Below are positions 1 to 39,010 of a stretch of 64,000 nt of DNA, piece after piece. Where the stretch lies: NCBI GenBank assembly GCA_951406725.2, contig OX597821.1, positions 31,372,001 to 31,436,000 on the forward strand, given 5' to 3'. The notes under the pieces are model-generated. The model did not search any database. It was not told the origin of the DNA and saw only the letters and a list, made by a program, of their open reading frames with translations. This DNA is from Octopus vulgaris (taxonomy: Eukaryota). The position numbers were made by a program, and so were the translations under genes. Position 1 is the first letter of the stretch. The number at the start of each line of letters is the position of its first letter.

Positions 1-312
1 TAGGTCTCTGTTGATAAAAAGAAGAGTGGTAAACATAATTTCATGGTATATACCTTATATTGCAGTAAACCACATTGATCACTCAAGTTATAGCGTCAAC
101 AGGGATAGAATAAACTACAAATATCAACTGATGACACTTAAACAAACCATCTTAAATAAGGAAGAAACATATTTTAAAACAAATATGACATGCTTCCGTG
201 TAAGAAATCCTGGGATCAGCGCTCGTGCGAAAGTGTTTGAGTGGCACTGGAAAATGACAATTACAATTATTTTACCATTACGAAGCGCGTTTTCATTATA
301 GAATATGTTTAA

Positions 313-728
313 GGTGGCGAGCTGGTAGCAATATTAGCCCATCGGGCGAAATACTTAGCGGTATTTCGCCTGCCGCTACGTTCTGAGTTCAAATTCCGCC
401 GAGGTCGACTTTGCCTTTCATCATTTCGGGGTCGATTAAATAAGTACCAGTTACGCACTGGGGTCGATATAATCGGCTTAATACGTCTGTCTGTCCTTGT
501 CTGTCGTCTCAGTGTTTAGCCCCATGTGGGTAGTAAAGAAATAGTTATTTCATCTTCCACTACGTTCTGAATTCAAATTCCACCGCGGTTGACTTTGCGT
601 TTCATCCTTTCGGGATCGACTAAATAACTACCAGTTACGCACTGGAGTCGATGTAATCTACTTAATACTTTTCTCTGTCCTTGTTTATCCCTTTTATGTT
701 TATTGCCCTTGTGGGCAATAAAGAAATG
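313..728 (+). mobile_element. tRNA-derived SINE (family B), full copy plus tandem partial copy, with 13-bp TSD
   Basis: Head ggtggcgagctgg...gagttcaaattcc (B-box-like). The body repeats from ~545. The direct repeat agaatatgtttaa lies at 300-312 and 729-741. Related copies occur at 7360, 17630 and 30158. Confidence 0.85.
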
Positions 729-1414
729 AGAATATGTTTAACATTATTATGTAATTGCTTATTATCATTCGACTTTGAATACGTTAATATAACTGCAATA
801 TTTTTTTTAGTATAACTGTATTTTGGAGAGTGCTGCAAAAATAATTAACGCTGTGAATTGCTCGTGCAAGCCTACATGTATATATATATATATATATATT
901 ATATATTAGCAGGATTATAGAAAGAAATTTTATGTATACACACGCACACATACATGTATATATATATTTATATGTTTGCATGTATATATGTGCGTGTATG
1001 TATATTGCTAGAGATATGTATCATTTCATTCTATAGCATGTAACCTTCATAAAGTTGTTTGTAAAAAGTGATTACCTTATGATGATGTAAGTGTTTTCGA
1101 AGTGACATAAACATACACTTGACATGTCGTTAAAAGTTTCCATGCAAATACAAAGTCTTGAAATATATACTTTCCAGAAAATAGAAATAAAGATGCATAA
1201 GTTTATGGAGATGCACAGAGATAAAACGCGTGTGTCATATTCATGTTCTGCCACAATATTAATCATATAATGTCTGTAACGTAATGGAGCTGAAACATGA
1301 AATGATATCAAAATAAGAAGCTGTATATTTCTCACTGAAAATTGTTGCTATCTCTAACAAATCAGATGCGCATTTATATAATATTCAATTAATATATATA
1401 TATATATATACATA

Positions 1415-1455
<41 letters not shown>

Positions 1456-1458
<3 letters not shown>

Positions 1459-2071
1459 TTTGACTTTGATTTTGATTTTTCCAGTTTCAGCTAATGAGCT
1501 GTGGCCATGCTGGGGCACCGCCATTTGGTTTGCTACACGATTTTACCTCACGGATGCTTTTTAGCAAACGCCATCTGATGCATGAGAGAGTTCGATGCAG
1601 CTGCCCTCATCTGCACCTCCTGCCGTGAAGTTGGTTCATCCGGGACACCTGACAGGAAGAGATCCAGTCCTACTTTAAAGACATCCGCATCCACACCATG
1701 CAGGTCCCTCAGGTTCTTCGGGAGGATATTGAAGAGCTGTGGGCCTCTGAAGCCCAGGCTATCACAATAGCTTGTCCTACATCTTGATGGCAAATTTGGA
1801 GTCCTTGGTACTACGCAGAGGCGTCCGGTTCTGGCATTTGTGTGACTCTCGATGCCAAAGTCTGGGACAAGTCCTTCCATAATCTTCCAAATATATATTA
1901 TGGCATATCTTTCTCGCCTACGCTCCAGGGAATAGAGCTTTAATCTCTTGAGTCTTTCCCAGTAGCTCATATGTTGCACAGAGGCTATCTTCTTCGTGTA
2001 GCTTCGTTGGATCGCCTCAAGTTCTGTGATCGACTTGACACTGGATGGTGAGCATAGCTGAGAGCAATAGT
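1456..2071 (-). mobile_element. 5'-truncated CR1/L2-group LINE 3' end (ORF2 C-terminus plus 3' tail)
   Basis: ORF 1548-1979 reads YWERLKRLKLYSLERRRERY...GPQLFNILP...FKVGLDLFLSGVPDEP, typical of a CR1-group ORF2 C-terminus. The tail ggcggtgccccagcatggccacagctc...gctgaaactgg is followed by (AAAATC)n. Confidence 0.85.
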
Positions 2072-2105
2072 ATATATATATATATACACATATATATATA
2101 TATAT

Positions 2106-2520
2106 TCACCGTTTCCTTCGTCTGCCGTAAGGCATTAATTTTCAAATACGCCAGTTAAGTCGATCTGTCTAAAATCGAAAGACGCCTGTTGTTTTTGTCC
2201 TGTTATTATTATTATTGTTTTTGGTGTTTATATTCGTATTACTTTTTGTTTTTTGTATTTATATTCGTGTAACATCGTCCGTTTTTCTGTCCTTGTTTCG
2301 TATACGTCCGATCCTTTTTCCAAGAAATCTAATGCTCGTAGCTTAGTTTTTCCTTGGGGCTGGCCGGATCGGAGCAATCTCAAGATTAATCAGCCGAAAT
2401 TCCGAGGATGATCCGTTTCTTGACTGAAGATTAGAGGCTTCGAATGACCAGTCCGTTTTTGTATCGTTTATTTGAATGTTTTGCGTTCTTGTCCCATTTT
2501 GTATTTTTATAAATATTTTT
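2106..2520. repeat. (TA)n-flanked interspersed repeat, related to 53637-53810
   Basis: Shares agcttag...ccttggggc(t/c)ggcc...gatc...ttct(t/c)gactgaagatt with 53637-53810. Both lie next to (TA)n. Confidence 0.55.
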
Positions 2521-2529
2521 ATACATATA

Positions 2530-2566
<37 letters not shown>

Positions 2567-4809
2567 TGACTTTCCAAAAATTTTAGTCTTCATACTGCTA
2601 GGAATTTGATAACAATACAATATTCAGTACGAGTGAATATTAAGAGTTACTATTTTACAACGATAGCAATAAAAGTATTATTGCATTTTCGATTAATATT
2701 AAAAGTTATAGTATAAATATGTAAATCTTTTGATTAAAAACTAGTCAAAGTAAATAAGCGATTGATTAAATGAAATATTGAATCTGAACGTAATTAATAA
2801 TCTGTATTTCGTTTAAATTATTTTTTAACCATTTCCCTGGAAAAATAAATAAAACTCAATGCAAAGCAGCTATTTTACCACTTGTTACAATTTAGGTGGG
2901 TGGTCGTCAATTAATTCTAAGATTTTAAGCATCCGATCAATTTTATACTTGTTAAATAGATATTTTTTTTTAATGTATTTGAACGTTTGTTTTCTTTTCC
3001 CGCCGAAGTTGTATCCAAATTTAATTAGATATTTCCACATGCGATGGTGATTTGATCAAACTTAATGTAAAATCAAAACAATGAAACACAATTAAGAATG
3101 ACAAAATACAAATTTATGTGTTGAAATTTTTCATTACATATTTAGGTTTAATTTATTTAAGAATCGATTTTTAAAATGTCTTAGATGAACTTAACGACAG
3201 AATTTGAAAATTGAAGTTGAAATAAACGAACTAATGAGAATAATTATATTACAACTAAAGTGCAAGAAACCTTTTAATGCGAAGACGATAATTGACACTA
3301 TTGTTATAAGAAGAATACAGTTTGAAGAAATTCAAGTAAAAGTTTATACCACGTTCATAGTTGGGTGAACCGAAGCAAATAGAGATGCATATATTTGAAG
3401 GACATGTCGGGTCACAAGAATTCAAAAATCAAATTATATCCACAGAATCTTAAATAAGTCCAATATACCCAGTTATTTATGTTCTACCTCTTGTAACAAA
3501 CTATATTATATTTTCTCTTACGAATAGTTTGAAACACGTTGAATAACAAGAGAGAGATAAATTCAGTTAAGACACAAATAGGTGGCCGTAGGATGTAGGA
3601 GCGTTAGCATACGTGATTTTCATTCACGGACCCAAAAATTTCATTGAAAATCCTGTAGATATCGATGGTAAGTTAGGAAAAGAAGGAAATAAAATTATAA
3701 ATAGCAAACGGATAATATAGACAAAAGTATTATGAAGCAGAAAAGTGCAGAAAAGATAGGTGGAGTAAGCATCTTAAAGAAAATATAAGGTATACAATGT
3801 TATATACGTATTACACAATTTTGTTTCAAGGAAGATTAATTGCAGCAATTATAAAAACAGTGACAATAAGGAAAACAAAATTATAAAATAGAATATATTG
3901 AGTTATTATCAAACGCATTCAAAATTGTAAGTTAGGTAGATGGCTTAATAGAAGATGCATGTAAAAGAGTACTTACCTGTAGGAGTGAGTTTGTGTGTAT
4001 GTAAGCATGCGTGAGAGAGAAAGAAAGAGAGACATTCTCATTCTATATCAATGACCTCGTGCCGTGATATTAGTGTTTTAATATGAGATTGTACAGTGCA
4101 TTTGGTTATGTATATGTGTATGTGTTTGCATGTTTGTATGTATATATATATATATATACACACACACATTTAATGCACAATATATGGATTTAACTAATGC
4201 AGTGGTACTCATAAAAAACCTCCATGAATGGATTAGGATAAAGAGCCAGTAGTAAACCAAAAGAAAACAAAGCTACAGCTGAAATCTTATAAATACATGT
4301 GAAATATTTCATTATTTATTATACACTCAAATAAATTGGTTTGCTATGATAAAGACTGCGAGAAATACACAAACACACACACCCACTCACGCATACACAT
4401 ATACATAAGTAACTCAATTAAGGAAAAAGACAGGGAAATTTCAATTACGCTTAGATGGTGAATATATTACATTAATGCTCAGTGAATAAATGCTCACAAA
4501 TGCTCGTAAATGCTCTATTTAAGAGAAATGCGAGATGAAATGACTTGGGTCTTACGTCGAAGAAAAGGAAAGCGGGAGGAAGAAAACAAAGTGTCCTGAC
4601 AAAAACAAATGTCGCTGAATGGCTTAAAAATAACCGCTCTGAAAAAGGAGAAAACTACAGAATGGGCAAAAACCGCCACTGCCTATGTGTATGTATATGT
4701 GATACTAGTGTGTATAAGTATTTGTATTGTGCGGAAATTGAAAGTAACATGTTTGTATATTAGGAAATGTTGCGTGGCATATAGTGTTTTTGAGTGTGTT
4801 GTGTGTGTA

Positions 4810-5281
4810 TAGGTGTGGCTTTGTGGTAAAAAGCTAGATTCTCGACCACATGGTTGCGGGTTCAGTTTAACTGCGTAGCACGTTGGACAAGTGTTTTCTA
4901 AAGGTTCGAGCCGACCGAAGCCTTGTGAGTTTCTTTTGTAGATGGAGACTGAAAGAAGCTCTTTGTATATACATACAGATGTAGATATATATATATATAT
5001 ATATATATATCTTTCTTTCTTTTTTCTTTTATTTCTTTCAGTCAGTAGACTGCAGTCATGCTGGAGAACCGCCTTTAGTCGAACAAATCTGTTGTCAAGC
5101 GATGTTGGTGGGGCGAACACAGACGCACAAACATGCACACATACACATATATACGACGGGCTTCTTTGAGTTTCCATCTACCAAATCCACTCACTATAGC
5201 CTCGGCCCGAGGCTATAGCAGAAGTCATTGAAACCTGAACTATGTGGATGGTAAGAAGGTACTTAACACACAACCACGTCT

Positions 5282-5286
<5 letters not shown>
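4810..5286. mobile_element. Two partial SINE family A copies in opposite orientation (4810-4975 +, 5030-5286 -)
   Basis: The + copy has gtggctttgtggtaa...ggttgcgggttcag...gccttgtgagt. The - copy has cagtcatgctggag...ctaccaaatccactcac. A (TA)n tract separates them. Confidence 0.75.
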
Positions 5287-5334
<48 letters not shown>

Positions 5335-7359
5335 AATGGATGATTTTTGAAATTAAAGGCAAAATTAATAGAGGTACTGGCCAGCACCAGCTCTTGCAGG
5401 AAACAAGAGTTAAAACCAGTCAAAAGTCACAAAGCACTGTACTTAATGATTGACAAAGTTCCCAGTGTAAATAATCGGACGTGCGACTTCGAATTTTCAT
5501 GCATAGCATCTTATTCGGGGCAAGATCTTTCCACATATATCTGGCCAAGTTTCGTACCGTTGGTGCTGTAAAGATGGGAGAGGGCATACAACATCTTACC
5601 ATAACCGCATTGACAGGTGTTTGATGGGATTATATGAAGAAAACCAGATTGAGTTGCGGGTGCTCAGAAGAGTTATATTCTGTTTCAATAAATTGTATTA
5701 TATACTTTTCATAAAATAAATTTGTCGATTGTATCTCCTGGAAGTCAGTCGCATAGAACTCCGCATTATACGCCTTGTATTGCTATAGACTGTGAGACGA
5801 GGGTTCTCTAGAAGACCTTTATGTGGTAGCCACATGATTCTATGAATCCATATTCTGCTCAACATGTGAAAATATACACACAGATGTACATACATGTAGC
5901 ATAAATACATACACTCACGGACTTTACATATACATATATGTGTGTGTGTGTGTTTAAGTATGTGTGTATGCGTGTATGTATATATATATCAGCGTAAGCT
6001 ATAGTTTATCAGTTGATATATATAACGGTATAACTTCTCTGCGATATAATATTTTCTCTAAATCTCTATAGTTATTATTGCATGTACTCCTACAAGAAAT
6101 ATCTAATAATTCGTGTAACGTGAATAAGGAAGACAGCTAATGTAATTTCATTTGCCAGTTGGAACAATATCAAACCTATCTTTACTCTGGACTCATCTGT
6201 TGCATTGTGCAAGCTGACATAGCATTACACCGTCCAATCCCTGTCGTCTCCAATTTAATGACGTGCGATATGCGTACTTGAAGAATTATTCTCTGAATGA
6301 GACTTTATATCATGGGTTATTTAAAAATTTATCACAGAAAGCTAATGATAAATTCATTATATCAGGCTTCTACAGCAGAAACTGTGTACTGTACTGACAT
6401 TAGATATATGTATTGATAGCTATTTGTAAGGATTAGGTGTATCTTCTTTATAGATGCTGCCTAGAATAGTGTTGTTATACAAACGATTCTCCATTACGCC
6501 TGTAATGCGCTGTCATCTGCGCCTTGTATAGACGGAAGATGGGCTTGTACAATTTCAAATTAAATATTCACCAAAGCATCTAGAAAGTAATTGTAGTAAA
6601 TTACGATTATTTAAATTCATACTCAATTATACAAACTGACAAAGTACGTGACACCAATAGAGCTGGATAATATATCGAATAACATTGCATATAAACTTTG
6701 ACCGAATATAATAGATTTGGATTGCCTGATATAGGATAATGTCAATTCAATAGAACTCGAAATTGAAAGCTAAGCTAGTAAGATAAGGCCATGACACCTC
6801 GAATTCTTACATATTCCGCTGAACTGATCGGCATGTCATTTCCATTAAGTCACCATATTCTTATGGTAGATCTTTCAAAGTAACTTAAACCCATAATGCG
6901 GTTTATTATTATTTCTCGTTGTATAGTTATTATACAAATAGATTGTTGTAGCAATGAATAATTATTTCTTTCAGTAGGCCTCAAGCCAAATGTCCGAAAG
7001 CGATCTAAATAGTCGAATAGAGTAACATCTTTATAATAGTAAACTATAATGAACAAAAACAAAGGCATCTCAACAGGTTCTGGAGATGTTCTAATTTACA
7101 GGCAACCTCCCCGGAATACCAATGTGCTTACGAACATAGCATAAAGTAAATATACTAGATTATTATGGATTATTCGATGTATTTTATCTCAGAAATAAAA
7201 TGACGCATTTATAGTTGGAGAATTTGATTATGGATAAACTTGGGCAGCATTGACCGGCGTGAGAACAAAAAGGACAACAACCAATACTTGTTCAAACAAT
7301 TTGCAGGAAGGAGTAAAGACAATCACATGCGATTATTTATCTCCATATAATTTGTAAAC

Positions 7360-7507
7360 AGGTTGCGAGCTGGCAGAAACATTAGCGCGCCGGGCGAAAT
7401 GCTTAGCGCTATTTCGTCTGCCGTTACGTTCTGAGTTCAAATTCCGCCGAGGTCGACTTTGCCTTTCATTCTTTCCGGGTCGATTAAATAAGTACCAGTT
7501 ACGCACC
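7360..7507 (+). mobile_element. SINE family B, 3'-truncated
   Basis: gcgagctggcagaaac...gagttcaaattccgccgaggtcgactttgcc...accagttacgcac is near-identical to 313-460. Confidence 0.85.
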
Positions 7508-8769
7508 TGATTTATAAACCATTCGTTTCATATTAAAGCTAGACAGACAGAGACTACCAAACACTCCATAAAGCATGTTACATCGATCCTCACAGCAACA
7601 TATGCTCACGCACTTACACACACACACACACACATACACAAACACACACACACACACACATCAGTCCAATAGGTGAACGATTCTCCTTCTTCTTCATTTC
7701 CTTATTCTTAAGTTATGTCTGATAATATCTTCAACACACCACTGACAACATCAACACCACCATCATCATTCTCACCACCGCCATCATCACCACATCACCA
7801 CCACCACCACCACAAGCATAAATATACCACCGCCAGTTTAAATACAGTACCACCAAGTCATGACACCAAACATCACCACCAATTACACCACCACAACCAC
7901 TTCATAATGATCCGCGTCGGCATTAACGCCATCATCATCATCGTGATCACCATTAGACTTTCTAATGAATTGAGATTTTATTACTACCTAGCCCCCGCCT
8001 TTTCTCAGAATGTTCTATGTTTTCGAGGGATGCATTTGATGCATCGTCATTACTTTTGAGAATTTGATTGATTTAAGAATTGGAACAATTTTTAACGTTC
8101 AAGATGTATCTGATATGTCACGGGTAAAATGTCACCGGTAGAAGCCTTCCTGTAGTTTATCCAGGCAACTCAGCGATATTTTCTTCTGCTGTCATACTCC
8201 AAATAATTATTTTGTTTAGGAGCAGCTGATCCCTGCATCTCTATGCTCCGCGTTTACTGATTTGTGAAAATTTTAATTGGGGAAAACGTTCCATTATGGC
8301 AGATGTATCTTGTACATTGTCCTAAGGCAAGATTTTAGTCTCTATATTTTAGGTTGATTTTCTGTTCTTGTTTTATCATTGGTAGGGAGGAAAATACAGT
8401 AAAACTTGCCAGCCATGCCGGCTTATTTGTGATTCGTTTATAATTCCTTTCTAACAGCAAGCTCTTGTCTGAACTTCGATCGTTGAGCTGGTAGATTTGA
8501 TAGTGTGTCGGAAAAAATGCTTATCAGCATTCCTTCAGGCTCTTTACGTTCAAACCACAAATTTTATAAAGATCAAATTTACCTGCCATTCTTTTTGGGC
8601 AGACACAATAAATGCCGGTCGAGTATAGTGGCTGATGCAACCCAGGCCGGTACCCCTAGAATTCCAGCTCTTTCTTCTTATAGACGGAACACTTATTACC
8701 ATTATTATTGCACTTCTTATCATTATTAATATTATTATTGCTGTTGTTTATGTTTATGCTGGTAAATGA

Positions 8770-9150
8770 TACTCTTTTACTTGTTTCAGTCATTTGACTG
8801 CGGTCATGCTGGAGCAACGCCCTTTAGTCGAGTAAATTGACCCCAGGACTTATTCTTTGTAAGCCTAGTACTTATTCTATCAGACTCTTTTGCTGAACCG
8901 CTAAGTTACGGGAACGTAAACACACCACCAAGCAATGGCTGGGGAACAAACACAGACACACAAACATATACACACATACATATATATACATATATACGAC
9001 GGGCTTCTTCCAGTTTCCGTCTACCAAATACACTCACAAGGCTTTGGTCGGCCCATGGCTATAGCAGAAGACACTTGCCCAAGTTTCCACGCAGTGGGAT
9101 GAACGCGGAACCATGTGGTTGGTAAGCAAGCTACTTACCACACAGCCACG
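8770..9150 (-). mobile_element. tRNA-derived SINE family A, full length
   Basis: Reverse complement of the family consensus: gtggctgtgtggtaagtagc head, cttgggcaagt core, internal CA/TA tract, gctccagcatg...tgactgaaacaagtaaaagag tail. Confidence 0.9.
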
Positions 9151-10274
9151 AAGAGAAATATAGTTTAAAGATGAAATAGCGTAGACCTGTTCATATTTAC
9201 GTGTTTCTTGAATAAAAAAAAATTAAAAAATACTGAAGTTATTACCAATGTAAAACGCACGGAAATCAATGAGCTACAAATTTTGTCATTTACATACACA
9301 TTTCGGTACGTTGCAAGTATAGAGAAAAGTAAAGTGAGCACGTGTGCACACATGTACCTAAATATGTGCACAGAGTAACATTGCATCTTGCCCATGTCTA
9401 TATTTTAATCATAAGAAGAGACTGTAAACACGTGATCAAACAGTGTTTGATATATTTTCATAAAAATATTAAACACAATCATTACCGTTTTACAGGTAAA
9501 ACATACCTAAGTAAATAAATGCATATTTTTCTAAGTGCGTGTCTTTGTGTGTGCGTGATTGTGCATGTACACATCCTTAAAAACTCATAGGATATATCAA
9601 CACATATATAATAAATATGCGTGTGTTTATGTTGTTGTCTGAGTGGTGTGTGCATGTGTGTGTGTCTGTGTGTGTCCATGTACATTCATACATATGTGAA
9701 TGTATGCATGCGTGCATACCTATGCATAGACAGAGTGAGAGAAAACGAGAGTAAGAAGCACAGAAAGAGGGAAAGAGTACGAAATGTGTTAGAGAATGTG
9801 TGAGTTCAGATTTTATCACTAAGTTCAGGGAAGGTCTCTTGAGTATTCGTGATTGCAAATAGATTTGGAATACTTTATTAGGAGCATTCTAATTTCAGTG
9901 TCTGCGCATTCCTAATTACTTCGCACCAGCATTATATTTCTAGATTAAATCACAGGAATAATTGAATTCTTTCCTCACGTCGTAGTTTGAATTTTATGAT
10001 GTTATTCTTTGTTTTTGTTTTTGTTTTTGTTTTTTTATCCCATGCAAATTTTATTACACAAAAAAGGTAAATATTGTTTTTAAGTCTTTTTTTTTTTTGA
10101 TTTGTAGTATTCTGAAAAGAAAACTAAAACTTGACAGAAATAAAACCGCGAATCGGAACTCAATATTTCTAACATTTTTATTCGTTTATATTGCAAACTA
10201 TTTCATTTTATCACCTGCTGAATCGGTTGTGTGATCTAGAACCATTTAATATGTATGGGCGTTTGATAATCTAC

Positions 10275-10322
<48 letters not shown>

Positions 10323-10435
10323 TGTGTGTATGTTTGTTTGCTTGTGTGTATGTGTGTATGTGTGCTGTGTGTGATGTGTGTGTGTGTGTGCCTGTGTGCG
10401 AGGTGTGTGTGTGTAGATATGCACACACATATATA

Positions 10436-10481
<46 letters not shown>

Positions 10482-10579
10482 TACATATATACACATTTAT
10501 TTGCATACATATGAATATATGTACCTATATATTATATATGAATCTTTATATATACATATACAAATATATCAATATAAAT

Positions 10580-10638
<59 letters not shown>

Positions 10639-11014
10639 CACACATAGATTGGTGTTTGCGTTCTATCAGGTGTAAAAGTATTTTTTTAAATAGAAATGTA
10701 AAAGCTAAACAGTAAATTCATTGAAGATTTTTTCTTTCTGTATGTCCTAGGAAATGTAATGCATACGTATATTATAACTATTTATGATGCGTATATCGAA
10801 TCGTTATGCGTATGTTTAAATATTGTACTGTGACTTTTGAATAGACATGTCGACATGTCCTAGTATAAATGCTTAAGCATGCATCACATGGCGTATATCG
10901 TTTAGTCAAATAGTAAATATGATGAACAATGTGTTTCATAAGACCTCCAGATCTTGTGGTATGAGGGAAATATTCATCAAAAAGAAGGGATATATTTATA
11001 TGCACACGTATACA

Positions 11015-11058
<44 letters not shown>

Positions 11059-11152
11059 AGAGTTTACGAAAAATACAAAAGACGAAGACAGGTGGTGTAC
11101 AAAACTATAACGCTCAGGAATAGAAAAAATTCTGTTACGTTTCGATCCTACG

Positions 11153-11209
<57 letters not shown>

Positions 11210-11343
11210 TATATGTAAATCAGACGGGTATGTTCGACTTTTAGTGCTCTCAAATTTAAATTTATAGTAGTGGAAATAGTTAAATTCTTTGGCTGCTATT
11301 TCTAAAAGTTCGGTGTGTGGTAAAGCAATTTTTGGGTGAACCC

Positions 11344-11402
<59 letters not shown>

Positions 11403-11561
11403 CCACAACGCCATCTCTTCGGATTTCCATCTCGGCATCCGAAACTCAGAGTTTTATCTTGGCTCTTGAATAATTGTCACATTATTTTACTGATACATTT
11501 CCTCTATTTACATAATATTGAGGTATCTTTCTTTCTTTTGTTCTCTTACCGTTTTTACCAA

Positions 11562-11684
<123 letters not shown>

Positions 11685-12307
11685 TTTTTGTGTGTGTGTA
11701 TAGTACGAACCAACCTCTATAACTCCTGGAAGTAAAGTAGATGAGCTGTGAATTTTCTTCTCCTGTCTGTATTTTCTGTCTACTGTTTTTTTCTCTCTTT
11801 ATTCTTCTATCTACTATTTTATTCCGTTATTAACTGTTATTTCTCTGTCAAGAACTTTCATACATACCCTCCTTGTCTCTAATGACGGAATACCTAGTGT
11901 ATGGAGTTGCTAACTCATCACTTGACATATTCCAGAAACCGCTCTAAGAATCAAATAATTAATTAACTAATTAGTTAAATAATTAATGCAAATTCACCTT
12001 ACTCTAATTGGATTTTCAAAATTACTTGAGATACTCGTACTACCTTGGTTTCTTTTCGTTCTTTTACTCTAATGTATATATATATATATATATATACATA
12101 TATAATTTGGTTAAAAGATAGTTCGTTTCCATGGTTTTGTTTTACCTTTTTGTTTCTCATTGTGGATTTTTTATGTCCTGTTCCCATATATGCATGTATA
12201 TATACGTAAAGATATAGGTATGTACATATATGTATGCATATATGCATATATTTATATATTATTTATATTATTATATGATCGAACGCCACGCATCCTTTTC
12301 CAAGTAT

Positions 12308-12365
<58 letters not shown>

Positions 12366-12367
<2 letters not shown>

Positions 12368-12859
12368 ACAATTGAGGGTAAAATTAATTAGTTATTAATC
12401 AATTTCACCAAGCATTCAGTATATAAAAGGACCATTTAAGGCGAATTCAAAATATTACATTATATAATTAGGGCTTAGTAAAATAAATTACTTTGCCACA
12501 TACTGAACTTGCTAGAAATAGCAGCCAAAAAAAAAAAAACGGGTCATCTGAGGTGATAAGTCGCCAAAGGGTATGTTCTTTCTTTTTAGTGCTTCCAAAT
12601 CCAAAATAAGAAATATTGAGCTGACGAAAGAAATGCTGAGTTTATTTGGCTAATCTAGAAACGTTAACGTTCTCAAATAATCTTTGTACTTGTGATATTT
12701 TTCTGTTTTTACCTCCATACCTTCGTGAGTTATTTTGAGTAAACATTATCTGAGAGAAATGTTCTTTAAGTAGTGGAAATGGCAAAAAAAACTTTTTTTG
12801 GCTGCTATTTCTAGCAAGTTCAGTATGTGGCAAAGTAATTTATTTTACTAAGCCCTAAT

Positions 12860-12867
<8 letters not shown>
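12366..12867 (+). mobile_element. (TA)n-flanked Penelope-like/retrozyme insert with 75-bp inverted repeat and a hammerhead
   Basis: Inverted repeat at 12459-12533 / 12793-12867. Internal HHR at 12616-12676. A related fragment lies at 11220-11350. Confidence 0.7.
12616..12676 (+). ncRNA. Type I hammerhead ribozyme
   Basis: ttgag-CTGACGA-a[aga...tct]a-GAAA-cgttaacg-TT-ctcaa: 5-bp stem I, intact core, palindromic stem III, GUU cleavage triplet. Confidence 0.8.
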
Positions 12868-12930
<63 letters not shown>

Positions 12931-12974
12931 GATACACACAAATGTCTGTGCTTATGTTTATGTGTGTGCGTGCA

Positions 12975-14270
12975 AAATACCTTTTCTCAACATCAAATAT
13001 AGGTACGAAAGTTTAGGCCTATCTAACTTATCCGTTATTTTAAAAACTACACATTAGAAAGGTGAGATGTAACATAAATAATGTTGGCAAGTCTTAGGCG
13101 AAATATCTAATAACACTCTCACGACCTGTCTTCAGACGTTTCAAATATACCCTGCGTATGCGAATACAGATGGGATGACCTACGTGTCTCCTTATTCTTT
13201 GCATTACGCGTATCACAACGAGGTTGATGTAGTTTAACGAATATAACTTCAAGAAAATATACGTTATCTTGCACCTGAAAGTACCTAACTTACCTTCACA
13301 TGGAACTATTTCAAGGGCAAGGACAGTTGCAGAAATATATAGAGAATTATCGATAGTCATGTATCCACCTATCACAAAAATCAGGTATAGTAGTCTGTAT
13401 TATATGGAACTTTAGCTTTAGTCAATTTCAACATGTTGGTGTAGGAAACTCAGAATCTGGAGAAACAAACTCACCTTTGGTATGCAAGTCAATCCCTTGC
13501 TCAGGATACAATAAGTTATGTCTAGGCGTTAGAGGATATCTCCAACAGGAAATTCATTCATATGAAGATGCGCATCATGCGGAGCAATGAACTCATATTT
13601 TAAAGGTACACTGCTTTTTTTAAAAAATGAAGGCTTATTCTACATCAACTTCGATCGACTGGCTATATGGTGGAACTTTTGTCTCATAGTTTTGTCGTAT
13701 GTTGTAAGATCCTGTCCATAGTTTTGTAGATGAGATAACAACTGGATGAAGAAATGTACACATGAGCAATACTTTTAGCATTGGTTGAAATATTCATTTC
13801 AGTGGAAAGTCTAAGATGCATAGCATAACTAAGTAAGGCAGTAAAGGGCTTGCTAAAGAATAAAGGTCACTCGAGGCCCTAATCAAATATCTGGCAGAGC
13901 AATAGTAGAATATCCACCGATAAGTTTTAATGCAGAAACTTATCAAAGAAAATGCATAATACCTTTTCTCAATATGAAATATAGATACGAAATTTTAGGC
14001 GTATCTAACTCACCTGTTATTGAGAAAAAATACTAAATTAACTTCACAGCGACTACACACCAGATTACTGAAATGTAACAACCTATAATTTTGTAACGTC
14101 AGCAAGTCTTTCGTGAAATGTCCAATAACACTTTAACGTCCTGACTTGCTAGACTAACATTATGATTGTTTGAGACCTGTCAAAGAGACATTGCGCATGT
14201 GAGTATACGTAGGATGACCTACGCGTCTCCTTATTCTTTGCGTTACGCGAATCACAACGACGTTCATGTG
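12975..14270. repeat. Diverged local duplication (~12975-13230 vs ~13958-14270)
   Basis: The blocks ccttttctcaa...acgaaa.tttaggc.tatctaact and ggatgacctacg.gtctccttattctttgc.ttacgcg.atcacaacga occur in both. Confidence 0.75.
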
Positions 14271-15481
14271 GTGTCATTTTCTGCTTCTTAATTTGCTCTT
14301 ATTGATGACAGCCTTCCATGGTCAAGTCTGTTGAAAGTTTAGAGCTTAAGTTACAAGCCTTGATAACTTGGAGCTTTAGTTACAAGCCTTGAAATAAATT
14401 TCAACCAATATATATGATACCTCGCTTCCTTTCAAATAAGTATGAATTTTACGTTGCCACAAATTTTGTGCAATGCTTCAAGCCAGCTACTATGTCAGAC
14501 AAGAATGCCAGGGTGACATGCAGCCAAAATGAATTAATTCCAACCATTGAATTTGAACCGAACGTCAGTGCCCCAGAATATGTTTTTGACTCTGATGTTC
14601 CCTGTCAAAAAAAAAGGTATAATTCTGTATTTTTTTTTATTTACCCATGTGGATAGTGTTCAGATTTTCAATTTATCGATAAAACAACTGTCTGATAATC
14701 GACTGTTATATAGGCAGTCATTACAAATATCGTGTAAGCCTGGTAATTTCAGAGTGCTATTTATGTGTTTACATCAAAGCTTCGTTGTAATAATCGTAAG
14801 AAAAACGCCAACAAAAACTTGGAGTAACAGTAACTTAACGCTAAGTTAAATAAAGTTGATAGTTAACTGTCTGTAATCATTATGATATGCTATAAACTTT
14901 TGGAACTTTGGAAGTATACGCACATAGGCGAATATATACATACGTATATACATAAATGTATTTATACGTTCGCGTGTGTTTGTGTGTGTTTGTGTTTTGT
15001 GAATGTACGTGTGAGTGTATAAACTTTCACTTTTAACTCCATATCGGCTATATTTCATAGAATATCGCATAACACATTACAATTCACATACTGTTATATT
15101 GATTTAATTACAAACACATTCAATTTTGGCGAATTTTACAATACAAAGACATGACACTGATTTATATTACATTTTCCGCCACTATATTATATTCTAATGA
15201 ATAGCCATCGGCAATTATAAAACCATAACATTGGAATTGCTTTAAGTGTGTTGTAATGATACAATGGAAACTGTACTGAACTAAGATTTATATATATGTC
15301 CTTGTGAACTTCGACTGCAGAAATCTAAATTATATTATTAACATCAGTGACCTTCAAAAGCGACGAGCTTTTCTTGTACTCTTACATCTTGAGTGTTTTG
15401 AAGATTTGATCACTCCTGCTCTGTTAGCAAAATTCACTTAGCCGATACACAACCACACAGACACACACTTACGCACTACCA

Positions 15482-15527
<46 letters not shown>

Positions 15528-16384
15528 CACACATACACACACACAAACATTCATAAACACACACATGAGTGAGTGTGTGAACAAATGTCAGGAGCAATAC
15601 ATACGCTTATAGTTACATGTATGCTATAACACTATCACTCAGTACTTATGACTAAGATTACCCGCTAAGGGGTGATCATAAAGTGCCCCCCTTGCAAATA
15701 TTGCTAATACTCGCAAAAACAGTAGAAATAATAAGGAAACAAAAGGGAAATGAACGTCGCTCAAAGTGCCTTATGTTATAAAAGTAACTTAGAAAACACA
15801 CTTAAATATCACTGCATATTAGATAGATATATTGTTAATTTTCTTTCCCACCAAAACCTATTCTATCTTTATAGGATACTCTAATGCGGTCAGTCGGCAG
15901 AATTGTTAATGTTGGACGCTTAGCAGTATTTCAACCATTGCTACGTTGTGAGTTCAAATTCCACCGAGGTCAAATTTACCTTTCATCTTTTCCAATTAAA
16001 AACAAATTGAGTCCTGGTTTCGTTGTGATCGACTATCCCCCTCCTCCAAGTTTCAGGCATTGTGCCTATAAAAGAAAGGATTATATAATACTCTAACGCC
16101 CGTATGATGAATGGATATAAGAAAGATAACTCACACACTTTAAACAGCATACAGTCTCTGACTAGTTCTCGTTAGTGAAATACATGTAGCGACTGCGAAA
16201 TTTATGATGTTATAAGAAAAAAAATTGTAGGTTATTCCCAAGTTTTTATTTCCCATGTAGATATATAGAGTTTTTGAGAAGCTCTTGAGTATATATCCGG
16301 TAATTTAAGAAAGCAACTCTTATCTAGCAGAAGTAAATGTATTTTAATAAATATTCAATGTATGTTTTGGTTAAGTTTGTTTCT

Positions 16385-16930
16385 TTGATTATTTTACGAA
16401 CCCACATTCAGCTTCTATGAATGCTTCAGTTTGCGACAGTTTTCATTGGTCTGCGTATATTAGATGACATTCACTCATTTAAGACACTCCTGGACAATGG
16501 CGGCCTTTAGGAATGGTGTCATTGAGGAGATTTTCAACAAGATTTCCTTTCAACAACGCTCTGAACATTGAATTCCTTGGTAGTTAAATCACATGGACTC
16601 CAGTTCTTGCGTTACAAGGGCTTTGTGGGAAGTGCTGAGATTTGGAGAAACATGGTTAGGAATCCACTCTGTGCTTCATCAGATTAAGGCTGGCAAAAGT
16701 CTCCAGCATTAGAATTTATGTAGCAGCATTATTCACGAGATTCCATTGCCAATATATGCGGTTCCATGATAGAATCTTCCTTAATTATCATCCCTAAAAC
16801 CATGACACTTGCTGCAAACTTAGTGTTCAACAGTCTAGTGATAGCAGACTGCTGCACACTAAGTTTCTGCTCATAAAAATCTGCCATGACTTTTCTTAGA
16901 ATTTCCACATCACCCGGAATTTTTGTTTCC
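16385..16930 (-). pseudogene. Decayed Tc1/mariner (maT/rosa-like) transposase fragment
   Basis: TKFAASVMVLGMIIKEDSIMEPH resembles the K(H/F)PASVMVLG..S..G..MPPH motif. The C-terminus reads EAFIEAECGFVK*. The fragment has several stops and frameshifts. Confidence 0.6.
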
Positions 16931-17482
16931 ATCGGAGAGGAAAGTATAACATCTTTGTGAGGTTGACTAGCAATTAATTCAATAATCTAATCTTTCTATC
17001 CACTTGAATCACAACTACAAACAAAACATCGCTTTATATGAATATTAAATTAAATTATTAAACATATCACGCTCCAATAATCATGATATACCAAATATTA
17101 TATACATACATATCGTTACAGTGTATGCACATAAAAATTTGCTTTCTGAGCATGATGAATGAGATTCTCTTCAATGATAATTTTATCATCTTAAGTATAA
17201 ATGTAACAGGGTTATTTTTCGATATATTTCCGTTCTTGAATATTTATATCCGAAGTGTGCTAATGCTATTTACAAAACGATTTGTGATTATTTACAGTCC
17301 CGAATAGTAACAAAAGCATCGAAACAGAACATATTTTTTGGCTGCCTACCATACTTAACTATTCTAGGGAGTAGTGTTGACCTTTGAAATTCTTCATAAG
17401 TTGTAAGAGCGAACTTGTAGCAATATTGTTTGAAAGTAAAAGAGTTATATCAATTATGATATACGATTCTCTTTTCTCTTTT

Positions 17483-17840
17483 ACTCTCTTTTACTTGTTT
17501 CAGTCATTTGACTGCGGCCATGCTGGGGCAACGCCTTTAATCGAGCAACTCGACCCCGGGACTTATTCTTTTGTAAGCCCAGTACTTATTCTATCGGTCT
17601 CTTTTGGCGAACAGCTAAGTAACGCTAAATCATATTGATTGCAAATTTTGGCACAAGGCAAGCAATTTCGGAGGAAGGATTAAGTCGATTATACTAACCC
17701 CAATATTCAACTGGTGCTTATTTTATCGACTCCGAAAGAAAAGACGCAATGTCGACTCCGGGTGAGTTTGAACTCAGAACGTAAAGACGGACGAAATACT
17801 GCTAACCGTCTGGCCTGGTATGATTGTGATGGGGCCAGTT
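17483..17840 (-). mobile_element. SINE family A 3' part (17483-17625) followed by a diverged family B copy (17630-17840)
   Basis: Matches the reverse complement of the family A tail, then gtttgaactcagaacgtaaagacggacgaaatactgctaa of family B. Confidence 0.75.
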
Positions 17841-18219
17841 CGATGTCATATTACCAAATGGAATGCATAATATTTGTGTGCGTATCGGTCCTACTGTGAG
17901 TGGGCATATCAGCATTTTCACATATATGTGGGTGCCAGTATGTTTTTACATATATTTGGCCATGTCTGCTTATTCATTTCTGCATAAGATGAAATGGTGT
18001 AAGACATGGGAAATAGTATGAGATTTATTGTAACTGATATAGTCAGCAATATCTTCGAAAATGTTGTGTCCGTGTTATAGTCATTCAGTCAACACCATAT
18101 AGTTGTCGACAGCAACGCACAGATACACCGGTTCCAAAAGTCACGTGCGGACTGGTCTACGTATGTTTGTGCACGTGCATGTGTATGTCTGTAGTATACA
18201 TATATATGAATGGAATGTG

Positions 18220-18263
<44 letters not shown>

Positions 18264-18264
<1 letters not shown>

Positions 18265-19195
18265 AATGGTTGTATACTGTCAATCTAACAAGAACGTGAC
18301 AGTAGGGGGTACACCACCGCTGTATAGCCCTAGGAAGCATCGAACGCCTCCTGATAGCTTTGACACATTTTTCCCTGTGTCCTTATATACATATACGAAG
18401 GGGAGACAAACACCCCGGCTGCCGGAACTGCATCTAGGGACACCGTGTTTCAGGATTGTTGTCCTTCATCGACCTAGAGAAGCAAATACCCGTCAGCTGG
18501 TGATATTTGCCTCGACTTCGTAATTGTCTATATCTATATTCAGTGAAGTCTATTCACTGATTATCAAAATAAGAAATATTTAATTTCTAAATCTCTCGTA
18601 GAGACATGTACGGTGGTGGGGCGATAGAATGGTTGTATACTGTCAATCTAACAAGAACGTGACAGTAGGGAGTACACCACCGCTGTATAGCCCTAGGAAG
18701 CATCGAACGCCTCCTGATAGCTTTGGCACATTTTTTCTCTGTGTCCTTATATACATATACGAAGGGGAGACAAACACCCCCAGCTGCCGGAACTGCATCT
18801 AGGGACACCGTGTTTCAGGATCGTTGTCCTCCATCGGCCTAGAGTAGCAGACACCGGTCAGCTGGTGATATTTGCCTCGACTTCGTAATTGTCTATATCT
18901 ATATTCAGTGAAGTATATTCACTGCTACTCTAGGCGGATGGAGGACAACGATCCTGAAACACGGTGTCCCTAGATGCAGTTCCGGCAGCCGGGGGTGTTT
19001 GTCTCCCCTACGTATATGTATATAAGGACACAGGGAAAAAAATGTGCTAAAGCTATCAGGAGGCGTTCGATGCTTCCTAGGGCTATACAGCGGTGGTGTA
19101 CCCCCTACTGTCACGTTCTTGTTAGATTGACAGTATACAACCATTCTATCGCCCCACCACCGTACATGTCTCTACGAGAGATTTAGAAATTCAAT
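18264..19195. mobile_element. 363-bp hammerhead-bearing repeat: ~1.8 tandem copies plus an inverted partial copy (retrozyme / Penelope pLTR-like)
   Basis: Units start at 18264 and 18627. The inversion junction is at ~18922 (ctg microhomology). HHR folds lie at 18433-18478 (-), 18798-18843 (-) and 18929-18974 (+). The array is flanked by TA/T tracts. Confidence 0.8.
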
Positions 19196-19637
19196 TTTTT
19201 TTTATATATATATATATATATTACTTTATTTAAATTGATAGTATATCCTTAAATGTTTTAAACTGCCGTTCTTAATAGTTATTGTAGTAGAATTAATAAC
19301 CATTAAATCCTCAATCTATTTCGTATATTTCATTGAAGGAAGTTAATATACCTAGATAGCTTTTCCCCATTGTACGCCTGCAATGTGACGTGATTTCAAA
19401 TTTTTAAACAAGACCAGCAACTTCTGTGTTGGGGTACATCGACCTAATAATTACTGAGTCACAGTGTTAAAACCATTATTTCCAATGTCACTTATGTTAT
19501 AATCGCCTGGGGAAGGCCATTAAGTCATTTGTTAAGTTGTTAAATTGTTAAAACATTTAAGGATATACTATCAATTTAAATAAAGTAATATATATATAAG
19601 AAATATTGAATTTCTAAATCTCTCGTAGAGACATGTA
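19163..19637. repeat. ~95-bp inverted repeat around a ~285-bp spacer
   Basis: tacatgtctctacgagagatttagaaattcaat...ttactttatttaaattgatagtatatccttaaatgttttaa is mirrored at 19547-19637. Confidence 0.8.
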
Positions 19638-19772
19638 AGGCCATTAAATCATTTGTTAGTATAGTAGTGATATCAAGACACCCCCAGCCAAGAAGATTGA
19701 GGTGATTATTTTTTCTATATATGTAAACATTGATTACATATAGAGATGAAACAGAATATACATGTATATATT

Positions 19773-19825
<53 letters not shown>

Positions 19826-19827
<2 letters not shown>

Positions 19828-19959
19828 TTACGAACCACATGGTTTCGGGTTCAGTCCCACTGCGTGGCACCTTGGGCAACTGTCTTCTACTATAGCCTTG
19901 GGCCGACCGAAGCCTTGTGAGTGAATTTGGTAGGCGGAAACGGAAAGAAGCCCATCGTA

Positions 19960-20022
<63 letters not shown>

Positions 20023-20220
20023 CTGTGTTTGCCCCCCCCCCAATATCACTTCACAACCGATGGTGGTGTGTTTACGTCGCCGTAACTAAGCGGTGGTTCG
20101 GCAATAGAGACCGATAGAATAAGTACTAGACTTACAAAGAATAAGTCCTGGGGTCGATTTGCTCCACCAAAGGTGGTGCTCCAGCATGGCCACAGTCATA
20201 TGACTGAAACAAGTAAAAGC
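19826..20220 (+). mobile_element. SINE family A, lacking the first bases of the head
   Basis: accacatggtttcgggttcagtcccactgcgtggcaccttgggcaac...gctccagcatggccacagtcatatgactgaaacaagtaaaag. Confidence 0.9.
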
Positions 20221-20293
20221 GTAAAACGTAATAGCGTAAGCGTATATATGCCTATATATATCTATAGACACACACACATATATATATTTATAT

Positions 20294-24637: not shown

Positions 24638-24824
24638 TATATGATTATATATATAAATATATGTGTGCGTGTGTGTATGTGTGTATGTGAGTATGTGCGT
24701 GTGTATATAAGCACATATACACAATGCACATATTCATATATACATATAATATATATATGTATGTGTGTGTGTGTGTGTGTATGTATATATATATATATAT
24801 ATATATAGTTTTATGCCTATATAA

Positions 24825-25349
24825 ATTTATCAGTACATGCACATATATGTGATGTTAGAGAACGTGAAGGACGATGTCTCGCACAAGTTGTTATGAGTGT
24901 GTGTGTTTTTATGCTTGTTCAAGCGCTGTGATTATAGTTCTCTTCGCATTGACCATCTAAAGAGAAAATAGGTTCAAAGAGTTCTGGTTGTGTTAATGAA
25001 ACATTTGTAATATCTGACTTATACAACTATCTTCTTATATGTGACTGATGCGCCTATTTTCTCAATTCGTTGAATTATCTGCCAAACCCCGTAAACAAAA
25101 TGTTACACGTGTCATCTATATGAATGGAGAATGTAACGGTATACGTCAGATATTACAAAAGTTTCATTTACACAACTAGACGCGTTTGAAGCAATGATAT
25201 CATTAGATAGATAGCGGGAAAACAAATTAATTACAGTACATGAATCAAGCATACTATCGGCATAAATACATACGCTCATAACGTCGTACGTGCGGTACTT
25301 CGGCCTCCGCCACTTTCTCTAATTTCACATATATGTACATGTACAGATA

Positions 25350-25350
<1 letters not shown>
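24825..25350. repeat. Long imperfect inverted repeat (fold-back), ~520 bp
   Basis: Paired blocks include gtacatgcacatatatgtga / tcacatatatgtacatgtac, gttatgagtg / cgctcataac and gttgtgttaatgaaacatttgtaatatctgac / gtcagatattacaaaagtttcatttacacaac. Confidence 0.8.
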
Positions 25351-25409
<59 letters not shown>

Positions 25410-25481
25410 TTAGGGAATAAATCCAAATTTACAGGGAAAAAATCAGATTTAGGATTAAATCCAATTTTATAGTAAAATATT

Positions 25482-25620
25482 ATATAATATTAATTAGAGA
25501 CAAAACCACTATTTTGCAAAACAAACAAGGAAAGACTTAATCAATACATAAAATTGTATGTATTGATTAAGTCTTTCCTTGTTTGTTTTGCAAAATAGTG
25601 GTTTTGTCTCTAATTAATAT

Positions 25621-25625
<5 letters not shown>
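25482..25625. repeat. Perfect 69-bp-arm hairpin with 6-nt loop inside a (TA)n-flanked insert
   Basis: 25482-25550 is the exact reverse complement of 25557-25625. Confidence 0.9.
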
Positions 25626-25659
<34 letters not shown>

Positions 25660-26443: not shown

Positions 26444-26518
<75 letters not shown>

Positions 26519-26522
<4 letters not shown>

Positions 26523-29500: not shown

Positions 29501-29716
29501 GCAGGTTATGGTCTGTAGTTTTCTGGTTTTTCTGTTTCATTTGATTTGGGAATTAAGATGGTTTTCCCCTTCGTGAGCCATTCAGGCATTGTCTCTGGCT
29601 CTGCTAGTACGTTGTTAAAGTTTTCAGCCAGCTTTTTGTGCATTCCTGTTAGATATTTCAACCAGAAGTTGGGGATCTTGTCATGCCCAGGTGCCTTCCA
29701 GTTGCTTAGTCTTTGT
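26519..29716 (-). mobile_element. R4/Dong-clade non-LTR retrotransposon (RT, CCHC, restriction-like endonuclease); 5'-truncated, frameshifted, internally duplicated
   Basis: RT motifs AWIDYKKAFDSIPH, GIFQGDTLSPLLF and YMDDLKLY. Zinc knuckle CRICGDGQETINHIISSC, plus RHD, RPDI and KLSKYKDL. AATAAA near the 3' end. (TTA)n on both flanks, the known Dong target. Confidence 0.92.
27905..29518. repeat. ~806-bp tandem duplication of the RT region inside the LINE
   Basis: 27905-28710 and 28711-29518 are near-identical, with 6-bp ttttct microhomology at the junction. Confidence 0.9.
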
Positions 29717-33798: not shown

Positions 33799-33868
33799 GC
33801 CAGATAACCGAAGAGATGGTGTTCTGGAATTCCACCTCGGCATCCGAAACTCAGAGTTTTATCTTGGC
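33799..33868 (+). ncRNA. Type I hammerhead ribozyme, C4 core variant
   Basis: agataa-CCGAAGA-gatg...catc-c-GAAA-ctcagag-TT-ttatct, with a 6-bp stem I. A rearranged second copy lies at 11410-11490. Adjacent to (TA)n. Confidence 0.7.
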
Positions 33869-35520: not shown

Positions 35521-35924
35521 CTCTTTTACTTGTTTCAGTCATTTGACTATGGTCATGCTGGAGCATCGCCTTTAGTCGAGCAAATCGACCCCAGGACTTA
35601 TTTTTTTGTAAGCCTATTACTTATTCTATCGGACTCTATTGCCGAACCGCTAAGTTACGAGGACGTAAACATACTACCATCGGTTGTCAAGCGATATTGG
35701 GAGACAAACACAAACACATAAATACATACACATACATATATACATATATATACATATATACAACGGGCTTCTTTCAGTTTCCGTCTACCAAATCCACTCA
35801 CAAGGCTTTGGTCGGCCCGAGGCTATAGTAGAAGACACTTACCCAAGGTGCCACGCTGTGGGAATGAACCCGGAACCATGTGGTTGGTAAGAAGGCTACT
35901 TACCACACAGCTACTTCTGCGCCT
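35521..35924 (-). mobile_element. SINE family A, full length
   Basis: Reverse complement of the family consensus over its whole length. Confidence 0.9.
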
Positions 35925-36236
35925 ATATATTATCTTGTTTTCTTAAATTCAGAAAATAAATATAATAGATAAAAATGAATGTCTTCAAATAGAAATGTCC
36001 ATCTTTATGTATGTATCTTTGTCTGGCACTCTTCTTCATCTAATCGCGTTCAGTACCTCACGTTTATGATACATGCTATGCATCAACATGTTAGTATAAC
36101 ATCATTGTTCTTAGCTAGAAGGTTAAAGTGTGTTCCAGAGTTTTATTGATTTCTACTAAGTTGTTTTCTTACAATTTACAGAAGAATCGTTCTCACGTTC
36201 AGTTTAAATTCAGGTAATTATTTTCTCTTTTTTTTT

Positions 36237-38771: not shown

Positions 38772-38806
<35 letters not shown>

Positions 38807-38869
38807 GGTCCCGGGTTGAGTCGGGGTTAACCACAGTAAATAAGGTACTCAATACATAGCAGAGTAAAT

Positions 38870-38968
38870 TAATTTATTATATAGAAGGAGCTTCTACAGG
38901 ACTACAACTGTTTCCTGATGATTTCTTTTGAATGAAACAGTTCTAGTCCTGTAGAAGCTCCTTCTATA

Positions 38969-38978: not shown

Positions 38979-39010
<32 letters not shown>

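Follow-up and report, generated by a model that had tools for sequence, protein, structure and literature searches.

How did three hammerhead-like motifs, none of them with a canonical core, come to lie in tandem and inverted copies between two TA microsatellites of this 64-kb window (the whole stretch of Octopus vulgaris DNA analysed here), and do their cores represent a natural variant of the ribozyme or its decay? The answer that we consider probable is one insertion of a non-coding hammerhead-bearing repeat between TA microsatellites, likely reverse transcribed in trans by the reverse transcriptase (RT)/endonuclease of a Penelope-like element (PLE) from a multimeric RNA that was itself likely uncleaved; the ribozymes are now likely weak or dead.

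Self-comparison of the window resolves 18263 to ~19204 into a single insertion made up of unit A, a tandem 5'-truncated copy B and an inverted copy C (Table 1), which bears out the tandem-then-inverted layout described in an earlier note on this DNA. That note spoke of a 363-bp multimer; the unit length holds (363-365 nt), but only A is a full unit, B and C being 5'-truncated, and the repeat content amounts to 1.8 tandem copies plus the inverted copy. Likewise, the span it gave, 18264 to 19195, takes in the core of the structure but not its extent, since fragment D lies beyond it. The aligned copies are 95-97% identical (A/B 284/296, A/C 213/223, B/C 218/224), so an assembly duplication can be set aside. 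The hairpins listed for the unit are in part private to some copies: cagtgaa/ttcactg is confined to A and B, A alone has a perfect gacaca/tgtgtc, and tctct/agaga is found in A, C and fragment D.

Table 1. Coordinates of the insertion, its flanks and its hammerhead motifs (window positions).
Feature	Position	Strand	Remarks
(TA)20 microsatellite	18223..18262		left half of inferred target
Copy A	18263/4..18626	minus (RNA sense)	full 363-bp unit; AC-rich 3' end just after hairpin, abuts (TA)n
Hammerhead motif A	18433..18478	minus	core UCGAUGA (C3U, U4C), 18472-18466; predicted cleavage 18439/18438
Copy B	18627..18924	minus	tandem, 298 bp, 5'-truncated; unit columns 68-366
Hammerhead motif B	18798..18843	minus	core CCGAUGG (U4C, A9G), 18837-18831; predicted cleavage 18804/18803
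19-nt hairpin	18906..18924		CAGTGAA-5 nt-TTCACTG; 5' start of long arm
Copy C	18922..19146 (to ~19200 with tail)	plus	inverted, 5'-truncated; unit columns 142-366
Hammerhead motif C	18929..18974	plus	core CGGAUGG (U4G, A9G), 18935-18941; predicted cleavage after 18968
Tail	19147..19204	plus	next-unit columns 1-58; C end only
(TA)n	19204..19221		right half of inferred target
Fragment D	19548..19640	minus	inverted local duplicate of 19160-19261

The ribozyme lies on the minus strand of A and B but on the plus strand of C; the arms therefore abut head-to-head with their 5' ends, and each 3' end runs out into (TA)n. B and C are joined through a microhomology of three nucleotides, CTG (18922-18924), at the foot of the 19-nt hairpin. 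A and B together make a long arm of 661 nt, and C with its tail a short arm of ~280 nt. The tail is present at one end only, where the C arm passes the end point of A by 55-58 nt; it matches the unit up to 19195, and its last ~9 nt have decayed into a T run, an end of which fragment D preserves an older state. In unit coordinates, the C end lies 9 nt upstream of the B start. Both ends of the insertion fall within (TA)n, where no target-site duplication is readable; non-LTR retrozymes that have one show more than 4 bp. Fragment D consists of the element end, TA and 42 nt of flank, all inverted, between 22-bp direct repeats (19513-19534 and 19637-19658), and looks like a later, repair-type templated insertion. 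Short TTGTTAA-type microrepeats are seen at one of its junctions (19513-19658). The unit has a GC content of 0.46, i.e., below 50%, and none of its 6 ORFs (among 145 window ORFs scanned) gives a Pfam match. Only three matches to the unit occur in the 64-kb window, all at this locus, and there are none (0) in prokaryotic genomes.

The window holds another hammerhead-bearing multimer, with a 474-bp unit, at 46494-48341 (the 46.5-kb element), and the two units are unrelated, as had been claimed (alignment score 28 versus a shuffle mean of 29.6, with 137 of 200 shuffles scoring as high). The 363-bp element is also the older of the two, again in line with the earlier note: its copies differ by 2.7-4.5%, versus 1-3 substitutions per 474 bp. 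Of the claim that both were made by the same mechanism, the geometry stands, but the terminal motifs differ. In both, the arms meet head-to-head, the 3' ends face out into (TA)n, one of the arms bears a tail, and the long arm starts at a hairpin of 19-21 nt; the 46.5-kb element has a 99-nt tail and a gap of 75 nt between its arms, versus ~9 nt in the 363-bp element. A CCCT(A/C)A(A)TT-type 3' end is common to the elements at 46.5, 12.4 and 11.3 kb, the 12.4-kb element being otherwise without overall similarity to that at 46.5 kb. The 363-bp element lacks such an end, from which we infer that its autonomous partner is likely different from that of the 46.5-kb element. The insertion geometry of the 363-bp element is repeated in four other hammerhead-bearing elements of the window, those at 12.4 and 38.8 kb among them, and its unit shows kinship above shuffles to none of the six elements compared (46.5, 12.4, 33.8, 38.9, 60.5 and 60.9 kb).

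This geometry speaks for a PLE. The layout described for PLEs includes a partial tandem, an adjacent inverted 5'-truncated copy and a one-sided tail (PMC8557442, PMC3846280), and (TA)n is the preferred target of some PLE clades (PMC8557442). In experiments with a purified PLE protein (PMC11167929), both strands of the target are nicked and extended, synthesis begins at two internal positions on the RNA, which set the limits of the tail, and hammerhead cleavage is not required, RNA with inactive hammerheads being inserted just as efficiently. With endonuclease-positive PLEs and their pLTRs (the layout of Adineta Pen2a, PMC3846280; the (TA)n bias of Neptune and Naiad, PMC8557442; the biochemistry of Poseidon PAc, PMC11167929), the 363-bp element thus shares the tandem and head-to-head copies, a junction palindrome, the tail at one end, an AT-rich or (TA)n target and a hammerhead within the repeat. 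It differs from them in having no ORF, in its canonical-type rather than minimal hammerhead architecture, and in its tail, the length of which (55-58 nt) exceeds the published 30-40 nt and counts against the PLE reading. PLEs are present in O. vulgaris according to PMC13282606, in the available text of which the word ribozyme does not occur. Among the 145 scanned of 198 complex ORFs of at least 62 aa in the window, no PLE ORF (RT plus GIY-YIG) was found; the RTs at 26.8-29.5 kb and at 50.2 kb belong to other elements, as does the Helitron, and were set aside as autonomous partners.

With its layout, tail, microhomology, hammerhead fold, non-coding status and stable predicted fold, the element likely works like a PLE-mobilised animal non-LTR retrozyme. 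A tandem source locus would give a multimeric transcript in which no fewer than two types of unit were mixed, both with C4 in place by then. The PLE protein would nick both strands of the (TA)n target; two cDNAs, primed at two internal RNA sites 55-58 nt apart, would become the long arm A+B and the short arm C plus tail, and the two cDNA ends would join head-to-head via CTG at the hairpin base. Point mutation and local templated duplication (fragment D) would have come afterwards. The ancestor would cut as a dimer via the palindromic helix III, and could form circles of ~365 nt like retrozymes.

The inverted arm may instead have arisen by snap-back, in which a cDNA end folds on the 19-nt hairpin and copies B backwards, and a deletion between two CTG triplets (columns 87-144) then removes the palindrome centre. 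A hairpin at the junction in both testable elements favours this route: in 2 of 2, the long arm starts no more than 3 nt from the 5' base of a hairpin of at least 7 bp, a position that, by these post hoc thresholds, only 21 of 363 and 14 of 474 columns offer. Snap-back also accounts directly for the agreement of B and C at sites where A alone differs, and self-priming has been proposed for the palindromes at inverted junctions of Adineta PLEs (PMC3846280). Taken alone, however, it leaves the tail and the 9-nt near-contiguity of the arms unaccounted for, and both target strands prime in vitro (PMC11167929). The C end, 9 nt from the B start, favours two primings on one RNA; we lean toward two primings, and regard snap-back as a lesser but real possibility. 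In LINE-1 elements, the 5' inversions produced by twin priming likewise have a head-to-head junction with microhomology and arms that are nearly contiguous on the RNA; the 363-bp element differs in having no poly(A), a microsatellite target and a multimeric template. Twin priming on a single RNA as a general rule is weakened by the 75-nt gap in the 46.5-kb element. An abutting inversion like that of the 363-bp element is found in the 11.4-kb sister of the 33.8-kb motif described below.

Each copy contains, in order, TCTAGG, the core, AGGA, 6 nt, TCCT, GAAA, CACGGTGT, C and CCTAGA. Stem I (TCTAGG/CCTAGA), stem II (AGGA/TCCT), GAAA, the helix III string ACACGGTGT and the GTC site are invariant in all three copies, exactly as first described, and the topology is that of type I throughout (helix I of 6 bp, helix II of 4 bp, and a short near-palindromic helix III). 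The core readings TCGATGA, CCGATGG and CGGATGG are also confirmed by position. No copy has the canonical CUGANGA; each has two deviations, with GAAA and GUC intact, and the element would therefore fail a canonical-descriptor screen. A retains A9, B and C retain C3, and C4 is the parsimonious ancestral state, so that the core of the common ancestor was likely CCGAUGA, with U4C probably predating the insertion. The second change in each copy (C3U or A9G; in C, U4G together with A9G) is predicted from published mutagenesis to be damaging, and U3 in copy A faces G8 rather than a compensating A8; today's ribozymes are probably weak or inactive. A family core cannot be defined from three copies of one insertion. 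Natural variants of the core described before also deviate in the CUGANGA box while the stems stay intact, examples being the U3-A8 covariation of PLEs in Schistosoma (PMC4209133) and a viroid with U4C (cited in PMC3088659); the difference here is that U4C is found in a repeat of an animal genome, where each copy has a further change that is not compensated. The identity of the stems was dropped as evidence of selection, since the columns of the stems, GAAA, helix III and cleavage site (33 of 225) hold 0 of 12 substituted columns, which is not significant (P = 0.14). Compensatory stem changes were not found among the three copies, near-identical copies carrying no covariation.

Animal retrozymes are tandem units of about 170-400 nt with type I hammerheads, related to PLE terminal repeats (PMC7229834; bioRxiv 10.64898/2026.07.22.740005). 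Of the non-LTR retrozymes (Cervera and de la Pena 2020, PMC7229834; Li et al. 2026), the closest in size are the 350-390-bp repeats of Mytilus. The 363-bp element resembles this group in its tandem, non-coding unit of ~365 nt, its GC content below 50%, its type I hammerhead and its highly self-paired predicted circle, and departs from it in lacking a canonical core and in having an inverted arm and tail, features not described for the group in the text consulted. The proposal of a variant retrozyme family is supported as to the retrozyme-like unit; that the variant cores are functional, or the family consensus, is not supported. An intact core in at least two consecutive units is expected of an active member, all three cores deviate twice, and we do not file the locus as one. 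Mobilisation of animal retrozymes is still a hypothesis in which PLEs are the proposed partner (same two sources), and tandem/inverted insertion by PLEs is itself unexplained (PMC8557442). Here an ORF-less retrozyme-type unit carries every part of the PLE insertion signature, namely the inverted arm, a palindrome at the junction, a tail on one side and a (TA)n target; this is structural support for PLE mobilisation, of a kind not found in the accessible parts of the retrozyme literature. We also consulted PMC6155905 and PMC6765202.

The predicted fold of the unit is stable. As linear RNA, two permutations give -127.8 and -126.3 kcal/mol (z of -6.4 and -7.3, with 0 of 100 shuffles as stable in each case), and the circular monomer has an MFE of -121.9 kcal/mol with 64% of its bases paired (z of -5.9 versus 30 shuffles). 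The antisense circle is 9-12 kcal/mol less stable than the sense circle, yet has z values of -4.2 to -4.6; both strands fold well, so folding alone cannot set the strand. The isolated hammerheads fold no better than shuffles (z of -0.6 to -1.2), and the energy of such short motifs is no evidence. Beyond stem I, the prediction shows a bulge, which reads UUC in A and UAC in the other two copies, followed by a long helix with imperfect pairing. The periphery, with a bulge 5' of the 6-bp stem I, a 4-bp stem II and a 6-nt loop 2 starting with CAA, agrees with the Rfam HH9 consensus, and on this model may form a loop-loop contact. To adopt the dimer-active fold, the natural B+A RNA is predicted to give up 3.0 kcal/mol relative to its minimum, versus 8.1 kcal/mol for two monomer-active folds; a low-cost dimer-active fold is what is expected of hammerheads that cut as dimers (PMC4209133). 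The cores of A and B are predicted to pair with the CGG of loop 3 (probability 0.76-0.97), giving an inactive fold.

Could the ancestral CCGAUGA nonetheless be the working consensus of the family, an attenuated natural variant common to several unrelated PLE-derived families of this genome? We looked for other hammerheads with a relaxed scan of the window, which lists 22 sites by a scoring devised in this analysis. Ten sites have no more than one core deviation: six canonical (12621, 60538 and four in the 46.5-kb element), two U4C (33808, with a score of 7, and 60915, with a score of 5) and two A6C, which are at one repeat position and score 4, the noise level. Both one-deviation motifs with scores of at least 5 are thus U4C (2 of 2), where 0.010 are expected per window and two are found in 0 of 1900 shuffles. 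The statement that a C4-type core recurs at 33808 and 60909 is therefore correct, as CCGAAGA at 33808 (plus) and 60915-60909 (minus) belongs to genuine hammerhead-shaped motifs, but these are unrelated to the 363-bp unit (170 of 200 and 114 of 200 shuffles, respectively, score as high). The 33.8-kb family is represented by two separate insertions (33.8 and 11.4 kb), both with CCGAAGA, and C4 is present in three of the approximately seven hammerhead-bearing families discerned, a count that includes a decayed 38.9-kb motif spotted by eye.

This recurrence of C4 across unrelated families is suggestive rather than proof, with small numbers and two irregular motifs. C4 in A and B, and as the parsimonious ancestor of C, is what a working U4C core would predict, and the U4C variant of a viroid, much slower in vitro, keeps its infectivity (PMC3088659). 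Against this, a single insertion counts as roughly one sample, transitions from T to C are common, CUGA-turn mutants have only weak activity in pairwise mutagenesis (PMC9901934), the C4 core is predicted to pair into the inactive fold, and the motifs at 33808 and 60915 are further irregular (a bulge, U17, a lost palindrome). On balance, a working U4C consensus is a tentative idea, less likely than not. Somewhat more doubtful again is the wider picture in which several unrelated PLE-derived families of this animal genome use the CCGA (U4C) core as their consensus, the throttled ribozyme letting multimeric RNA survive uncut for reverse transcription; in that case the locus would be a relic of this route, with a mixed linear multimer and not a circle as its template, and surveys requiring CUGANGA would have missed the class. 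If U4C is the family consensus, hammerhead counts in animal genomes are underestimated; if it is not, the locus is a decayed copy of an ordinary retrozyme-like repeat.

The motif at 33802-33864 (plus) is a CCGAAGA hammerhead-shaped motif with a bulged C before GAAA and a GUU site; in its sister at 11400-11489, the 21 nt that bear the core are inverted beside the remainder, head-to-head. At 60885-60919 (minus) lies a PLE hammerhead of the minimal type, with CCGAAGA, an unpaired A after A9, and ATGT replacing the palindrome. Minimal PLE hammerheads have a helix I of 4-5 bp or less, a long helix II, an unpaired base after A9 and no helix III; the 60915 motif fits this description, unlike the canonical-type 363-bp motif. 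A canonical type I hammerhead with CTGATGA, a palindromic ACCGGT and a long stem II adjoins (TA)n at 60532-60598 (plus), and matches HH9 at E=2e-4, below gathering. Positions 12366-12866 and 11215-11347 form a head-to-head (TA)n-anchored element with a canonical CTGACGA at 12621 and a tail of ~90 nt, and at 38804-38979, (TA)n tracts flank a short head-to-head element whose CTGATGA...GAAAC motif at 38915 has decayed and whose tail is ~60 nt long.

In the available parts of the literature, no earlier description of such elements in cephalopods, or of C4 cores in PLEs, was found. Lunse et al., who reportedly treat ~150,000 PLE hammerhead variants, may cover them. The supplements of the 2020 and 2026 retrozyme papers may list the host or the family. 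One of the two PMC4209133 supplement files contains no CCGAAGA, CCGAUGA or Octopus, but the descriptor of that survey fixed the core, so that absence from it says little.

Of the 12 sites at which A and B differ, 7 are packed into a 35-column stretch around the hammerhead's 5' half (p=0.004, post hoc scan). Of six changes private to A, five fall in 29 columns and one in the other 196 (p=0.005, also a post hoc scan); B equals C at all five of these clustered sites (columns 142-170), while B and C have three scattered private changes each. The simplest reading of the clustered differences of A is a template with two unit types, i.e., a linear multimer and not one circle, which agrees with the PLE protein's two internal start sites and its independence of hammerhead cleavage (PMC11167929). 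This suggests a mixed linear multimer, with the caveats that the cluster test is post hoc and that later gene conversion is a rival; if the mosaic of units was borne by the template, it argues against a single circle.

The opposite view, which follows the published model of retrozyme spread (PMC7229834), takes a single monomeric circle as the template, reverse transcribed by a rolling-circle mechanism; the family core would be canonical, and all the core changes would reflect later decay or gene conversion. B and C, as arms of an inverted repeat, could homogenise after insertion, and the 7-nt core holds 3 of the 12 substituted columns (P=0.004 overall, 0.13 inside the mutation cluster), as for a dead ribozyme. 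However, U4 must then change in all three copies, and A must acquire its private changes at the uneven density just described; we consider the single circle unlikely, and lean toward the mixed linear multimer.

That the motifs are a chance hammerhead-like string in a fold-back DNA element, a satellite or an assembly artefact is highly improbable and largely refuted, for although no Rfam model matches at gathering score and both strands fold well, the geometry recurs in the four other hammerhead-bearing elements, and a strict descriptor (stem I of at least 5 and stem II of at least 4 Watson-Crick pairs, near-palindromic helix III, no more than two core deviations), composed after the motif was seen and missing the window's other hammerheads, matches these three sites alone in the window and only 6 in 1388 block-shuffled windows.

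The absence of Rfam matches at gathering score extends to the whole 64-kb window. An E-value search at the locus gave generic hairpin models only, plus Hammerhead_1 on copy A at E=8.3, a match that we rejected since it is in the wrong register and uses an upstream CUGACGG string. Rfam is insensitive here, as even the canonical 60538 motif stays below gathering. A Pol III SINE was also rejected: the B-box-like GTTCGATGC is present in all three copies, but A and B have no A box upstream of it, and a tRNA search was negative. A TATA-like TATATAAG (18382-18389, minus) lies 35-37 nt upstream of TCAG, together with GTTCGATGC (18337-18345, minus) and with equivalents in B and C, and may be due to chance. 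The only T4 run of the sense strand of unit A begins at the tail end.

The window as a whole is AT-rich eukaryotic DNA, rich in microsatellites, with a Helitron ORF and fragments of non-LTR reverse transcriptases. The Helitron is a near-complete Rep/Pif1 helicase gene at 40173-45401 (minus), in three frames, with a first ORF of 1292 aa and a GC content of about 50%. Non-LTR retrotransposon RT and zf-RVT fragments lie beside (TTA)n tracts at 26452-29715 (minus) and 49656-50759, and include an 814-bp internal tandem duplication (27905-28716 versus 28711-29524). Inverted repeats at 25477-25630, 24780-25397 and 54190-54385 comprise a palindrome of 154 bp, nearly perfect and next to (TA)n, and two older repeats, with no hammerhead match in our scans. 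A SINE-like family of ~400 bp has copies that are 79-88% alike at 8770-9158, 19825-20241, 35519-35926, 36237-36629, 58423-58847 and 59678-60096, one of which is located 170 bp to the right of the flank of fragment D.
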